From Candidatus Spyradenecus sp. (lineage in GTDB: Bacteria > Verrucomicrobiota > Verrucomicrobiia > Opitutales > UBA953), in NCBI GenBank assembly GCA_045535075.1, contig JAZSKX010000018.1:160001-224000 (forward strand): DNA of 64,000 bases, given 5' to 3'. The translations under genes and the position numbers were made by a program. Below the pieces are notes generated by a model that saw nothing but the letters and a program-made list of their open reading frames with translations, did no database searches and had not been told where the DNA came from. Below, piece by piece: positions 1 to 64,000 of this stretch (positions are counted from its first letter, which is position 1; each line of letters opens with the position of its first letter).

Positions 1-348
1 TGTGCCGTCGGCATTTTTAAAACCCGTATAAACCTTCCCGCCGTCGCCCAGCACAAGGCTCCTTCCGTCGGCAGTCTTAATTGTTCCACTTACGGAGCTT
101 ACGTGCGCAGCCGTCAAAACCCAGCGCGTTCCGCCGAAATTCCCGAGATAAGTTCCCGTTCCCGCGCCGAGCGTTACCGTTCGATTCCAGATTTCGGTAA
201 TCGCTTCCGACGGGGCGTTTCCCTGAAAATCTTTTGTCGGATCGGTATTATGGCCGGCAGTTCCGTTGACGGAGGCAATCATCGCTCCCGCGAAAGGCGT
301 AAGCGCAAAACCAAGAGCAACAGAACAGACACGCTTCAATAATTTCAT
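1..348 (-). CDS. Secreted trypsin-like (S1) serine protease, N-terminal part; runs off the window edge
   Basis: Not in the ORF track. My translation from ATG 348 gives MKLLKRVCSVALGFALTPFAGAMIAS (signal peptide-like) ... GTGTYLGNFGGTRWVLTAAHV, with the TAAH catalytic-His motif. The frame is open to position 1. Confidence 0.8.
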   Translation of the reverse strand, partial: MKLLKRVCSVALGFALTPFAGAMIASVNGTAGHNTDPTKDFQGNAPSEAITEIWNRTVTLGAGTGTYLGNFGGTRWVLTAAHVSSVSGTIKTADGRSLVLGDGGKVYTGFKNADGT

Positions 349-411
349 AGTAAAAAGGTTTTACGGATGTTAGCGTCGCCGCTCCCGCAAGTCCACAGGC
401 AAAATGCTAAG

Positions 412-2961
412 CTACGCATGCGCTTCTAGCCAATTTGCACCGGCGGTAGCTTCGGCAACAAGCGGCACGGAAAGCGGGAACGCCGCGCTCATTTCCTCGG
501 AAAGGAGCTGTTTGACTTTTTCAGCCTCGGATTCGGGAGCTTCGACGATGAGTTCGTCATGAATCTGAAGTACGATTTTTGCCGCGGGAACGTCTTTTTC
601 CAGCCGTTTATAAACACGCAACATCGCGATTTTAATAATATCGGCAGCCGAGCCTTGAATCGGCGCATTGAGTGCGACGCGTTCGCCGAAAGCGCGCAGG
701 TTGCGATTGGCGGCGTTGAGCTCGGGCATCGCGCGGCGGCGACCGAGTAGAGTCGCGACAAATCCGTCCGCTTTTGCTTTTTCGACGACCGCTTTCATGT
801 ATTCGCGCACGCCGGCATATTTGTCGAGGTAGCTTTCGATGTAATGTTTGGCGGCTTTGCGCGTAATTCCCAGCGATTTTGCGAGCGAAAATTCGCCGAC
901 TCCGTAAACGATTCCGAAGTTCACGGCCTTGGCGTGTCGCCGCATTGTCGGCGTAATTTGAACCGGTTCGACACCGAAAACGCGGCATGCGGTTACGGCG
1001 TGAATATCGCCGCCTTGATTAAAGGCTTCCCGCATCGCGGTATCGTCGGCGATGTGTGCGAGCACGCGCAATTCGATCTGCGAGTAGTCGGCATCGACGA
1101 GCGTGTTCCCGCCGGCGGCAACGAACATCCGGCGCAGTTCGCTTCCGAGCTCGCCGCGCGTAGGAATATTTTGCAGATTCGGACCGGAAGAGCTCAGTCG
1201 CCCGGTTGCCGTTACCGTCATGTTAAAAGTCGTATGAATGCGCCCGTCGGGAGCGACGGCGGCGATGAGCCCGTCGGCAATGGTTTTGAGTTTTGCGAAT
1301 TGTCGAAACTCAATGATTTTGGCGACAACGGGATGCAACGGCTCCAAATCTTTCAGGACATCGGCATCCGTAGAGTAGCCGGTTTTTGTTTTTTTGCCGG
1401 CGGGAAGGCCGAGTTTTTCAAAGAGCACTTCGCCGAGCTGCTTCGGAGAATTGAGATTAAACGTCGTTCCCGCGAGTTCGAATACGGCATTTTGCGCGGC
1501 GGTTGCGGATTTTTCCGTTTCTGCGGCAAATTCTTCGAGTTTGGCGCGATCGGCGGCGATTCCGCGGAATTCCATTTCGGCGAGAACGCGACAAAGCGGA
1601 AACTCGATTTCGCGATAAAGTTTTGCCATTCCGTTCGCCTCCAACGCGGTAATTTGCTTTCCGAACAAAGCCTGCATTTCCGGCGTGTTTTCCGGCGCAA
1701 TCGGCTTTTTCAGCGGATTGAGCAGATAATCGGCAAGCGCGACATCAAAAACAAAACCTTCTGCGGAAAGTTTTTCTTCGAAGCATTTTCGGAGAATCGC
1801 CTTCACGTTGGCGGCAACTTTTTTTATTTCCGGCGAAAAAAGTTTTCCGAGAAAATCGCGACGTTTTTCGACGCTCAGATTTTCAAAGTCGACTGTGCGA
1901 TGAAGCGTTCCCGCGAGAATTTCCGCTCCGGCAAAGGAAACGCCGTTTTCTGTTTCGGGGAAAAGCAAAAAGCAATGCTCGGCGGCACGACAGGCCTCAA
2001 GGATTTGTCCGAGCTCGTCGCCTCCGGCGGGAGCGGCAATCGACGCGGAAAAAAGCGGCAAATCGTCGTTGGTATCCGCTTCCGCTTCGGCGGGAGTGAG
2101 ATTCCATTTGGCAATCAGCTTGGAAAATTCGAGTTTTTTGAAAAGAGCGTAAAGCGCGGGAACGTCATAATCTTTGCGCCGATTTTCTTCAGGAGAAAAT
2201 GTAATTGGAGCGTCCTTACGAATTGTCGCCAAATCGTAGGAAATGAGCGCACTTTCCTTTCCGGAAATCAATTTTTTTCTCACGGAATCGCGCATTTGCG
2301 CCGTATCGATTTGAGCGTAAATACTTTCGATCCCGCCGATTTTCGAGATGAGTTCCCGCGCCGTTTTCTCTCCGATTCCGGGAACGCCGGGAATATTGTC
2401 CGACGCGTCGCCCCAAAGTGCTTTCAAATCAATAATTTTTCGGGGTTCGAAGCCGTAGTCTTCCCGGAACTTTTCCTCCGTATAATTTGTCGTTTCGGTT
2501 TTCCCCATGCGCGAGACGACGAGCAAGACGCGCACGCCGTCGCGGATGAGCTGGAGGCTGTCGCGATCGCCGGTAACGATGACGCATTCGCATTTTTCGT
2601 CGGCGCAACGCTCGCTGATTGTGCCGATTAAATCATCCGCTTCCCAACCGGCAAGCGCGTAGACGGGAACGCGCATTGCGGCAAGGACTTCTTTCATGAG
2701 CGGAATTTGCGGGCGCAATTCTTCCGGCATCGGCTTGCGCTGTGCTTTGTACGCGGCAAATTTTTCGTGGCGAAACGTCGGCGCGTGAACGTCGAAACAA
2801 ACGCAAAGTGCATCCGGTTTTTCCGCATCGAGTAATCGTGAAAGAATCGCGAGAAATCCGTAAACGGCGTTGGTAAAAATGCCGTCGCGCGTAGAAAGCA
2901 TCCGAATCCCGTAAAACGCACGGTTGATAATGCTGTTGCCGTCGAGAACCATCAATTTCAT
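412..2961 (-). CDS. polA: DNA polymerase I
   Basis: 5'-3' exonuclease motifs (DGNS..RAFY, EADD, GDASDNIPGV) and Pol A motifs (ADYSQIELR, KAVNFGIVYG, QIHDEL). Confidence 0.98.
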   Translation of the reverse strand: MKLMVLDGNSIINRAFYGIRMLSTRDGIFTNAVYGFLAILSRLLDAEKPDALCVCFDVHAPTFRHEKFAAYKAQRKPMPEELRPQIPLMKEVLAAMRVPVYALAGWEADDLIGTISERCADEKCECVIVTGDRDSLQLIRDGVRVLLVVSRMGKTETTNYTEEKFREDYGFEPRKIIDLKALWGDASDNIPGVPGIGEKTARELISKIGGIESIYAQIDTAQMRDSVRKKLISGKESALISYDLATIRKDAPITFSPEENRRKDYDVPALYALFKKLEFSKLIAKWNLTPAEAEADTNDDLPLFSASIAAPAGGDELGQILEACRAAEHCFLLFPETENGVSFAGAEILAGTLHRTVDFENLSVEKRRDFLGKLFSPEIKKVAANVKAILRKCFEEKLSAEGFVFDVALADYLLNPLKKPIAPENTPEMQALFGKQITALEANGMAKLYREIEFPLCRVLAEMEFRGIAADRAKLEEFAAETEKSATAAQNAVFELAGTTFNLNSPKQLGEVLFEKLGLPAGKKTKTGYSTDADVLKDLEPLHPVVAKIIEFRQFAKLKTIADGLIAAVAPDGRIHTTFNMTVTATGRLSSSGPNLQNIPTRGELGSELRRMFVAAGGNTLVDADYSQIELRVLAHIADDTAMREAFNQGGDIHAVTACRVFGVEPVQITPTMRRHAKAVNFGIVYGVGEFSLAKSLGITRKAAKHYIESYLDKYAGVREYMKAVVEKAKADGFVATLLGRRRAMPELNAANRNLRAFGERVALNAPIQGSAADIIKIAMLRVYKRLEKDVPAAKIVLQIHDELIVEAPESEAEKVKQLLSEEMSAAFPLSVPLVAEATAGANWLEAHA

Positions 2962-63271: not shown

Positions 63272-63394
63272 ACATTTTTACAAACTCTTCCCGAAAACGC
63301 AAAAAAGAAAACCGCGTAAACCTAAGATTTCCGAATCGTTCCCGCCGCTCATTTAGGCTTTAAGCGGCAATCGTTAATGCTTAGGCTTTGCCGT

Positions 63395-64000
63395 ATGAGC
63401 GAAGATTTAAAATGTCGGATTTGCGGAGCTCCCGCGACTATTCATCTGACTCAAATCATCAACGGGAAGATGCGAAAAATTCATCTTTGCGAACAATGTG
63501 CCGCCAAGCACAATGCCGCCGAGATGCCGCTGATTAAATTTGCGGAGATGATTACCAAAAAACTTTTCGGAGAAAAACTCGGCAAGGAAATCATCGAAGG
63601 CACCGTTAAATCGTTTTCGGAAAAAGATTTAAAGCTCGGAAAAAAATGCCCGAATTGCGGTTTGTCCGAAAGCGAACTGGAAAAAAATGAGCGCTTCGGG
63701 TGCCCTCAATGCTACGAAGTTTTTGAAAAGGAGCTGAAAGCGATTCTGCCGAAAATCCAACATGCCGATGCCGTTCCCGCAACGGACACGGCAAATATTA
63801 ATTCTTCCGTTCCCGCGAAAGCCCTTTCCGAAAATCCTTCTCTCGAAGATTTGGAAAAGGCGCTTCGCGATGCCGTCGCCAAAGAAAATTATTTACTCGC
63901 CGCCCAAACGCGAGACCGAATCGCCGCGCTCAAGGAAACCGCCAAAAAGCCCAAGCGGACAAAAAAATCCGTTGCTCCCGCAAACGAAGGGAAAACGCGA
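63395..64000 (+). CDS. mcsA: McsA-like protein (CxxC motifs + UVR domain); runs off the window edge
   Basis: Not in the ORF track. Translation MSEDLKCRICGAPATIHLTQIINGK..HLCEQCA..CPNCG..FGCPQCY..AVAKENYLLAAQTRDRI. Confidence 0.85.
   Translation, partial: MSEDLKCRICGAPATIHLTQIINGKMRKIHLCEQCAAKHNAAEMPLIKFAEMITKKLFGEKLGKEIIEGTVKSFSEKDLKLGKKCPNCGLSESELEKNERFGCPQCYEVFEKELKAILPKIQHADAVPATDTANINSSVPAKALSENPSLEDLEKALRDAVAKENYLLAAQTRDRIAALKETAKKPKRTKKSVAPANEGKTR

Follow-up and report, generated by a model that had tools for sequence, protein, structure and literature searches.

Copies of a short word across the window and the genome

The stretch of DNA analysed here, hereafter the window, is a piece of 64,000 nucleotides from Candidatus Spyradenecus sp. 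(Verrucomicrobiota; Opitutales), positions 160,001 to 224,000 of contig JAZSKX010000018.1. It corresponds to C5:160001-224000 in our numbering of the source genome (G000; 18 contigs, 1.95 Mb, 52% GC), and positions given below without a contig are those of the window. Among the genes that lie in it are rpsA, clpP, clpX, menD, gatB, groEL, mreB, infA and nadE, and scattered through genes and gaps alike are copies of a short non-palindromic word, which is the subject of this report. Between 158 and 63816, on both strands, there are 137 copies of GTTCCCGC, 182 of the core CGTTCCCG and 112 of the 9-mer CGTTCCCGC.

An earlier note on this DNA had put the exact window copies by hand at about 135, where about 2 were expected. 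The program count was 137 for GTTCCCGC or its complement (86 on the plus and 51 on the minus strand), and dinucleotide-preserving shuffles of the window held 4.66 on average (standard deviation 2.0, maximum 11), with none of 100 reaching 137. The core occurs 117 times on the plus and 65 times on the minus strand. It had also been noted that most copies extend further and that the last base varies, which is borne out by the 112 of 137 copies of GTTCCCGC that lengthen to CGTTCCCGC and, genome-wide, by the base after the core: C follows 63% of the 5,158 copies in the logo, T 25%, A 8% and G 5%.

Across G000 the core is the commonest 8-mer, with 5,159 copies on both strands summed, or one per 378 bp, against 68.8 at zero order (75-fold). 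The 9-mer CGTTCCCGC has 3,244 copies (182 times zero order) and GCGTTCCCGC has 1,614 (348 times), and for k of at least 9 the k-mer counts follow from their sub-words. The base before the core is G in 47% of the copies in the logo, G or A is preferred at +2 and +3, and outside about -1 to +10 the relative entropy is at most 0.03 bit over the 12 nt taken each way; the information of the word is confined to about 8-10 bases. Repetitive extragenic palindromes (REP), miniature inverted-repeat transposable elements (MITE) and other dispersed repeats were ruled out, no flank being conserved past the core of about 10 nt. Since the flanks carry no information and the sub-words predict the longer k-mers, what recurs is a bare word and not part of a longer repeat element, and the flank logo that the earlier note had proposed came out as an 8-9-mer without conserved flanks. 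The density is 2.4-2.9/kb on each G000 contig longer than 90 kb.

Near-copies are spread unevenly over the positions of the core. One-mismatch variants at positions 1, 2, 3 and 5 were enriched 3-12-fold in G000 (TGTTCCCG, CGCTCCCG, CGTTTCCG and CGTTGCCG, with 800, 857, 608 and 572 copies, respectively), and those at positions 4, 7 and 8 stood at 0.4-2.3-fold, about background. Either a reader tolerates changes at positions 1, 2, 3 and 5, or variants at positions 4, 7 and 8 may be purged fastest; the profile is the pattern that a reader with position-weighted specificity would give, and it predicts that the bases at positions 4, 7 and 8 count most for recognition.

Genome-wide the core occurs 2,632 times on the plus and 2,527 times on the minus strand, in agreement with the earlier description of a non-palindromic word found on both strands. 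Whichever strand was richer in G over the local 30 kb, once the word had been masked, was presumed to be the leading one, and the presumed leading to lagging ratio was then 2,134:2,591 (45:55), with 296:336 for the intergenic copies. Antisense copies outnumbered sense copies whichever strand the gene lay on (1,506:880 for leading-strand genes, 958:749 for lagging-strand genes), so that the small bias follows the coding strand and not replication. Strict replichore polarity, which the earlier note had named as speaking against uptake, was not seen, and the 45:55 split rules out a polar motif of the Chi or KOPS kind. The gaps between copies are near exponential, as in a Poisson process, with a coefficient of variation of 1.10.

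Reading frames and effect on proteins

Genes were taken from our own open reading frame (ORF) calls, made with a self-trained codon score followed by gap filling and not with a standard gene finder; they comprise 1,606 ORFs on 92% of the genome, and the coding and intergenic counts are therefore approximate. In G000, 4,478 copies, or 87%, lie inside ORFs at 2.50/kb, and 676 lie in intergenic DNA at 4.34/kb. The word is thus denser between genes than within them, and the statement of the earlier note that it sits in most intergenic gaps was too strong, the core being present in 19 of the 42 window gaps of at least 20 nt.

All six reading frames are in use, with a bias among them. The largest class is antisense frame 1 (1,528 copies, peptide A/T-G-T), followed by sense frame 2 (1,216, x-V-P-A), antisense frame 2 (738, x-G-N-x), antisense frame 0 (421, R-E-R), sense frame 1 (295, x-F-P) and sense frame 0 (280, R-S-R), which covers the peptides VPA, AGT, RER, RSR, GN and FP that had been read from the window by eye. 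When synonymous codons were shuffled with the protein and the codon usage of each gene kept, the coding sequences (CDS) held 492 copies on average (maximum 517, 20 runs) against the actual 4,484, and a whole-codon shuffle left 163 on average. The word is in excess 9-fold over the synonymous and 27-fold over the codon shuffles and is no coding artefact; disappearance under a codon-preserving null had been named beforehand as a refutation, and the excess held. Both nulls are conservative because the word itself has shaped codon and amino-acid usage.

The placement within genes can be illustrated by a giant ORF of 4,790 amino acids (aa), rich in Gly, Thr, Ala and Ser, on the minus strand at C5:125845-140217, outside the window. 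It has 61 copies, all antisense, of which 51 encode x-G-T in unrelated, non-repeated contexts, a pattern indicating that placement of the word follows what the protein tolerates. Within the window, menD (46364..48133, minus strand) is rich in copies with nine, and the highly conserved genes carry few: none in rpsA (ribosomal protein S1, 568 aa; 30419..32125, plus strand), which serves as the contrast case, none in clpP, and one each in groEL and mreB. Two neighbouring paralogues (ORFs of 449 and 471 aa at 10863-13651, minus strand) have a C-terminal ClpP-like/serine-protease domain and are separate from the canonical clpP-clpX pair at 37617-39600.

The word also leaves a footprint on the proteome. 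In 842 orthologue pairs between G000 and the low-density congener G013 (see below), the tripeptides AGT, VPA, TGT and RER were 1.64, 1.58, 1.45 and 1.36 times as frequent in G000, and ten control tripeptides were at 0.75-1.15. Raised tripeptide frequencies of the same sort have been reported for the uptake signal sequence (USS) and the DNA uptake sequence (DUS) (Findlay & Redfield, PMC2817400).

Inverted pairs at gene ends

Copies lying close together have a preferred arrangement. Among adjacent copies within 30 nt, the forward-then-reverse order was found 181 times, the reverse-then-forward order 31 times and the two direct orders 64 and 49 times, with a spacing peak at 20 nt start to start. 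Exact inverted pairs in the hairpin order, CGTTCCCG-N4-16-CGGGAACG, number 147 in G000, of which 53 are in gaps between convergent genes, 72 in tandem gaps, none in divergent gaps and 22 within called ORFs. At least one of an A-run upstream and a T-run downstream accompanies 131 of the 147, and both accompany 68. With one mismatch allowed in the partner arm, hairpin arms account for 273 of the 676 intergenic copies, and 94% of all copies are not in hairpins.

Four inverted pairs lie in the window and fold at -18.1 to -26.6 kcal/mol, with z-scores of -5.4 to -7.6. The pair CGTTCCCG-N11-CGGGAACG at 16684..16710 stands between convergent genes with A-run and T-run flanks (-25.9 kcal/mol, z -6.7). 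The pair at 19608..19635 is likewise between convergent genes, of which the downstream one is infA, with an A-run upstream and a T-run downstream (-18.1 kcal/mol, z -5.4), and a third convergent pair is at 34156..34183 (-26.6 kcal/mol, z -6.7). The fourth, at 51717..51746, lies between the tandem minus-strand genes gatB and groEL (-21.2 kcal/mol, z -7.6). Furthermore, a terminator-like hairpin on the plus strand at 32145..32176, GGCGTTTCC...GGGAACGCC, is made of a one-mismatch variant and an exact copy; it ranked first in a consensus terminator scan that was itself uninformative, with 51 sites against 38.5 in shuffles and with the three exact pairs of its stretch not listed. From their position, flanks and folding, the inverted pairs look like bidirectional intrinsic terminators, at which termination is predicted. 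Inverted pairs of DUS and USS have been reported to act as terminators (bioRxiv 10.1101/2025.10.24.684340). The stems of all 147 pairs share TTCCCGCG with the Neisseria NTS/dRS3 consensus, reported to be cut by SsnA (PMC11893778).

Distribution of the word in the genus

A search of the genus gave 19 genomes including G000, and the other 18 are labelled G001-G018. The 9-mer was counted in 40 related genomes (these 18 congeners, 6 genomes of the same family and 16 from further families within the order), and the reversed word served as control. Fourteen of the 18 congeners are of high density, with 3,060-5,581 copies; the other four are of low density, with 732-760 copies in G001, G002 and G013 and 340 in G014. 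The control gave 32-100 copies across the congeners, and all 18 exceed their own control. The 22 genomes of other genera had 0-196 copies, none more than 2.7 times its own control. The word is restricted to one genus of 19 species.

Samples of 35-54 kb from each of five high-density species all had CGTTCCCG as their top 8-mer, with like flank preferences, at a GC from 45% (G009) to 65% (G018). The word still ranked top in the low-density samples (50-81 kb each) of G001, G002 and G013, at 0.50-0.64/kb, and did not in that of G014, at 0.28/kb. Dialects were considered and rejected: no substitute word appeared in the four low-density samples, and core and flanks were constant in the five high-density ones, so that the species differ only in dose. 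The survey of relatives proposed in the earlier note, which had allowed for dialects, therefore gave a motif shared through the genus, with no genome of the other Opitutales genera above 2.7 times its control.

Maintenance at the DNA level

Retention of the G000 sites was examined in aligned orthologues of five high-density species. Exact copies were found at 38 of 88 sites in G010 (15% for control 8-mers), 38 of 63 in G007 (31%), 58 of 100 in G018 (14%), 51 of 100 in G003 (12%) and 8 of 25 in G009 (8%). Where the spanning amino acids were identical, the word was kept at 28 of 38, 30 of 34, 47 of 57, 39 of 45 and 8 of 10 sites in the same order of species, against 33%, 50%, 27%, 25% and 20% of the control windows with identical amino acids. 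This higher retention under identical amino acids means that the constraint acts on DNA and not on protein. The 15 species, G000 included, hold the word at the DNA level, synonymous sites included.

For example, nadE (NAD+ synthase; 61337..63271, minus strand) has nine copies and was used as a test gene across 13 congeners and five outgroup genomes. Each of nine high-density congeners has 6-12 copies, the outgroups have 0, 0, 1, 0 and 0, and G001, G002, G013 and G014 have 0, 3, 2 and 0. Two sites are exact in all nine high-density species. The first is purely synonymous, the peptide A-R-E-R-T being coded with CGG GAA CGC, where three outgroups have CGC GAG CG[C/T] and two have CGC GAA CGC or CGG GAG CGC. 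The second required an amino-acid change, from V/I-R-N/T/G in the outgroups to C-G-N. Many further sites are limited to one to three species and arose by single substitutions, some of them protein-changing (G-A-G-A-G to G-A-G-T-G). The closest named public NadE records are those of metagenome-assembled genomes labelled Opitutales bacterium (80%), Candidatus Spyradosoma merdigallinarum (72%) and uncultured Opitutales (62%), in agreement with the verrucomicrobial placement that had been guessed from the letters. Going by these titles, the lineage is represented by metagenome-assembled genomes alone.

Two lineages that lose the word

The low-density species do not form one group in a tree of NadE (FastTree, one protein). 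G001, G002 and G013 group as one clade (support 1.00), which is nested with the high-density G000, G007 and G010 (support 1.00), and G014 is sister to the high-density G009 (support 0.98). That this three-species clade is the closest kin of G000 is seen as well from an amino-acid identity of 84-86% to G000 over 79-93 orthologues, against 73-80% for G010 and G007. Only 43 of 233, 42 of 238 and 45 of 242 G000 sites are exact in its members, where control 8-mers give 21%, 17% and 18%, and the word is kept there no better than background 8-mers; with identical amino acids, G013 kept 43 of 132 (33%) against 27% of controls. G014 kept 6 of 98 sites, with controls at 8%.

At the ancestral nadE sites the three species have decayed forms, one or two letters off. 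G014 has GTGGGAATG at the C-G-N site, two letters from the word; provided that the alignment frame is right, both changes are synonymous and C-G-N is kept. Between 70% and 88% of the copies that remain in the three-species clade are common to G000, so few of them are new. The simplest reading of these facts is that the ancestor of the genus already wrote the word, that 15 species still do and that two lineages (four species) have stopped. Decay in two lineages indicates that the word is dispensable and erodes once its upkeep ends.

Foreign DNA and methyltransferase genes

Foreign DNA in G000 is poor in the word. A Mu-like prophage at C16:189,260-220,268, with a Mu-type DNA transposition protein, a large terminase, a portal protein and a DNA methyltransferase (PHROGs), has 17 copies or 0.55/kb against 2.68/kb elsewhere, at an ordinary GC of 53.5%; the local GC skew in it is inverted. 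There are 27 word-free stretches of at least 2.5 kb, often of low GC. In or next to those at C12:44633-48942, C12:73190-77437 and C9:60623-67272 (40-42% GC) and at C8:20790-24615 (49%) are two Type I HsdM-like and two C5-methyltransferase genes, and these stretches probably represent restriction-modification islands of recent acquisition. The location of a third HsdM-like gene, C10:5206-6189, relative to the word-free stretches was not assigned. The GC is 40-42% at four of the five methyltransferase genes and 49% at one. No Vsr gene was found in G000. An ORF of 179 aa at C11:2838-3377, of 34% GC and word-free, lies just upstream of comEC; the syntenic place in G013 is without it, and it is probably a recent insertion.

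Uptake as the leading proposed explanation

Taken together, we consider it about an even bet (a probability of roughly 0.5) that CGTTCCCG(C/T) is an independently evolved uptake sequence of the DUS/USS kind, serving as a genus-specific 'self' word. Under this explanation, the type IV pilus uptake machinery (PilB/PilT/PilC, PilM-PilQ and pilins) would bind word-bearing fragments preferentially at the cell surface, a single strand would pass ComEC and be loaded by DprA, and the loaded strand would recombine with the chromosome. Word-bearing alleles would be taken up oftener and would spread by molecular drive, and the word would get written wherever it is tolerated, at synonymous sites, tolerant residues and terminator stems. 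Once the bias is lost, ordinary mutation would erode it. Transformability, word-biased uptake and the identity of the reading protein are inferred from the genomes.

Several of the genes that this mechanism would need are present in G000. ComEC is at C11:3775-5487 and DprA at C9:80972-82117, and one cluster has a pilB-like gene (670 aa), a pilT-like gene (359 aa, without an MshEN domain), a second pilB-like gene (559 aa) and pilC; in the same stretch, C5:25804-35683, the second gene downstream of the cluster, after purD, encodes a RecD2-type helicase. There are also pilM, a secretin of 984 aa and seven prepilins, four of which are in one cluster and weakly like the 'Verru_Chthon cassette'. The same machinery genes occur in 10-13 of 14 control genomes (secretin in 6, prepilin domain in 8), and since they are widespread in bacteria their presence is only a precondition. 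The search for competence genes recommended by the earlier note thus returned the type IV pilus genes, ComEC and DprA, and neither comEA nor a comP-like receptor.

Several observations weigh against uptake. ComEA was not found in G000 with PF12836 (HHH_3) or TIGR00426; both match an ORF of 787 aa, which from its size we take to be Tex-like, and there are weak matches of PF12836 to an ORF of 1,334 aa and of TIGR00426 to an integrase-like protein. Loss of competence genes was considered as the cause of the decay and rejected, because the low-density species keep all those tested: in all 19 genomes of the genus ComEC and DprA are open and the pilB/pilT/pilB genes are present. The 141-aa pilin is also in all 19, with 90-91% identity in the three-species clade (its match spans one TAA in five high-density genomes). 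The 345-aa pilin is in 18 of 19 and was not found in the high-density G004. G001, G002 and G013 have all four genes of the pilin cluster and the 257-aa pilin intact (80-91% identity), and G014 likewise has an intact cluster (58-69%); the 252-aa pilin on C2 was not found in the stretches compared. The word thus decays in species with intact uptake genes, and this natural experiment gives the uptake reading no support.

Gene content was screened over 1.41 of about 2.1 Mb of the low-density G013 with 1,543 G000 genes. Orthologue-like matches were obtained for 842 genes, and 46 matchless runs lay between syntenic neighbours. The clean deletions comprise PEP-CTERM proteins, thiamine genes, an aminotransferase, an arsenate-reductase/permease cluster, small four-helix proteins and the low-GC insert by comEC, and within the 1.41 Mb no DNA-related gene was cleanly missing. 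No receptor of the word was identified among the seven prepilins or in this screen. Furthermore, Haemophilus influenzae and Neisseria meningitidis have 1,471 and 1,892 copies of their sequences, with 35-65% in ORFs (PMC2817400), and the word, at 2-3.5 times these numbers and 87% in ORFs, is outside known experience. In the literature searched, neither natural transformation nor an uptake sequence was found to be described for this lineage. The proposal of an uptake sequence in the earlier note therefore stands as far as the sequence properties of DUS and USS go, and is weakened in that neither ComEA nor a receptor was found and that the word decays beside intact competence genes.

Two further features of the pilus genes were seen. 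A fourth PilB-like T2SSE ATPase (572-633 aa) occurs in 6 of 19 genomes, namely all four low-density ones and G004 and G018 (contigs G001:C66, G002:C82, G013:C39, G014:C75, G004:C17 and G018:C1); the G014 copy is beside the minor-pilin cluster, and G000 is without the gene. The proteins of the G000 pilin cluster (C1:259100-262397) are 80-91% identical to those of G001, G002 and G013 and 51-57% to those of G010 and G003, where NadE is 70-80% identical to all five alike. Either the cluster pilins evolve much faster, or they may have been exchanged.

Alternative explanations

It is possible, though we hold this only tentatively, that the word does not signal uptake and owes its existence to some undescribed, sequence-directed process of 'writing', carried out by a reader or conversion system apart from competence. 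Room for such a process, unrelated to competence, is left by the two lineages that stopped writing with every tested competence gene kept. On the same tentative footing, such a process would have to keep one copy of an 8-mer in every 300-600 bp at any GC from 45% to 65%, and could be switched off.

Rather unlikely, in our view, is an abundant sequence-specific reader inside the cell, much as the earlier note had offered a DNA-binding protein as its alternative, with selection and not uptake drive keeping the sites. Candidates would be a nucleoid- or chromosome-organising protein, a Chi-type recombination or self signal read both ways, and a defence 'self' mark. The upkeep at the DNA level and the restriction to a clade would fit any reader, and ComEA was not found. 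Moreover, competence genes and pilins are unchanged where the word was lost, so the lost part may lie elsewhere, which makes a cytoplasmic binding protein or other reader more plausible. Against such a reader, the word has no replichore polarity (45:55), its spacing is Poisson and not regular, it is dispensable to the extent that 4 of 19 species let it decay, and the analysis turned up no candidate for the protein. One site per 378 bp, at a cost to proteins, is far above the need of any binding-site system known to us.

Less likely still is a sequence-directed repair or gene-conversion bias with no role in uptake, HIP1- or very-short-patch-like, whose enzyme the low-density species would have lost. 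Decay beside intact competence genes is what the loss of one enzyme would give, and the over-representation matches that reported for HIP1, 15- to 300-fold (PMC5861425). The word is not palindromic, however, and no Vsr was found; the methyltransferase genes sit in or beside long word-free stretches, mostly of low GC. Relatives differ from the word at many positions, by transitions and transversions, unlike the outcome of single-mismatch repair, and such a bias does not predict terminator pairs or strand symmetry.

A role of the hairpin copies as NTS-like targets of an Ssn-related GIY-YIG single-strand nuclease that trims incoming DNA is very improbable. The stems here are GTTCCCGCG...CGCGGGAAC and the NTS consensus has ATTCCCGCG...GCGGGAAT, with TTCCCGCG common to both (PMC11893778). 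Yet no small GIY-YIG gene was found with PF01541, which has one match per genome in 18 of the 19 genomes of the genus; 17 matches pass the family cut-off in ORFs of 494-556 aa, a size that fits UvrC, and one genome has an extra weak match below the cut-off. In addition, 94% of copies are outside hairpins, and the loops are longer than in NTS.

Finally, an excess arising as a by-product of composition, codon usage, dipeptides or a repeated mobile element, which the frame preferences and the Gly/Thr-rich giant gene with its 61 one-strand copies might suggest, is refuted for practical purposes by the 9- and 27-fold excess over the shuffles, the greater richness of intergenic than of coding DNA, the absence of conserved flanks, the top rank of the word at both 45% and 65% GC and its absence from other genera of the same family.

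Implications

To our knowledge, sequence-specific DNA uptake is known from just two families of Proteobacteria, and its origin, spread and reading are debated. If the word is an uptake sequence, it would be a third case, unrelated to the two classic ones and denser than both, from uncultured gut bacteria of a different phylum, and would imply that 'self' words evolve repeatedly. As the earlier note had supposed, no published description of the word was found: the literature on uptake sequences or competence in Verrucomicrobia and Opitutales gave nothing relevant by title or abstract, and the matches to the letters of the 8-mer, among the matches listed, were chance or primer matches by the same standard. 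In its abstract, a 2025 survey names uptake sequences for Neisseriaceae and Pasteurellaceae only (bioRxiv 10.1101/2025.10.24.684340). With 15 maintaining species and two decaying lineages, the genus allows the reader gene to be sought by comparison and the erosion of the word to be timed, which the classic uptake systems do not offer. In metagenomics, so strong a signature of a lineage could aid binning and flag foreign DNA, the prophage and islands being poor in the word. It could also inform how DNA is designed for making these bacteria genetically accessible. Should the word prove to have nothing to do with uptake, an unknown mechanism of genome writing would be indicated.

Comparison with known systems

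Chi and KOPS are lineage-specific non-palindromic 5-8-mers that are enriched in native DNA and strongly skewed to the leading strand. The word is like them in being short, non-palindromic and lineage-specific, and unlike them in its 45:55 split, in a bias that follows the gene strand, and in a far higher excess and density. The NTS/SRM hairpins of Neisseria and others, reported to be cut by Ssn GIY-YIG nucleases, share the stem motif TTCCCGCG with the inverted pairs (PMC11893778), whereas here no Ssn-like gene was found in the genus and most copies are single and inside genes.

HIP1 (GCGATCGC) of cyanobacteria is likewise a hyperabundant octamer spread through genes, with a comparable fold-excess, low-abundance exceptions among relatives and a function reported as long unresolved (PMC5861425, PMC4390886). 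It is palindromic and tied to two conserved orphan methyltransferases; the word is non-palindromic, and the methyltransferase genes here lie in or beside long word-free stretches.

The USS of Pasteurellaceae comes closer. Both have a 9-mer core with weak flanks, most copies in genes, a frame bias and raised encoded tripeptides (PMC2817400), and in both the copies are in weakly conserved genes and positions and are surrounded by a position-weighted halo of one-mismatch variants. The USS receptor is itself unidentified, with ComN/PpdA predicted (PMC12616744). The two differ in that sequence and lineage are unrelated and that AT-rich segments flanking the word were not seen here, and the word is denser, at 3,244 9-mers against 1,471 (PMC2817400); it is known from sequence alone.

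The DUS of Neisseriaceae (10-12 nt, read by the minor pilin ComP) is also a short non-palindromic word on both strands and in all frames within genes. Its inverted pairs act as terminators, as is predicted here, and it too is restricted to clades and scarce in foreign DNA (bioRxiv 10.1101/2025.10.24.684340, PMC3630211), and the type IV pilus, ComEC and DprA genes that go with it are present here. The differences are an unrelated sequence in another phylum, no dialects found across 15 species, about 2.7 times the copies of N. meningitidis in a genome of similar size, with 87% against 34.5% in ORFs (PMC2817400), and neither a ComP-like receptor nor ComEA found in what is so far a signal read from genomes. 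Feature by feature, the signal matches the DUS/USS syndrome, in an unrelated uncultured lineage and at higher density.

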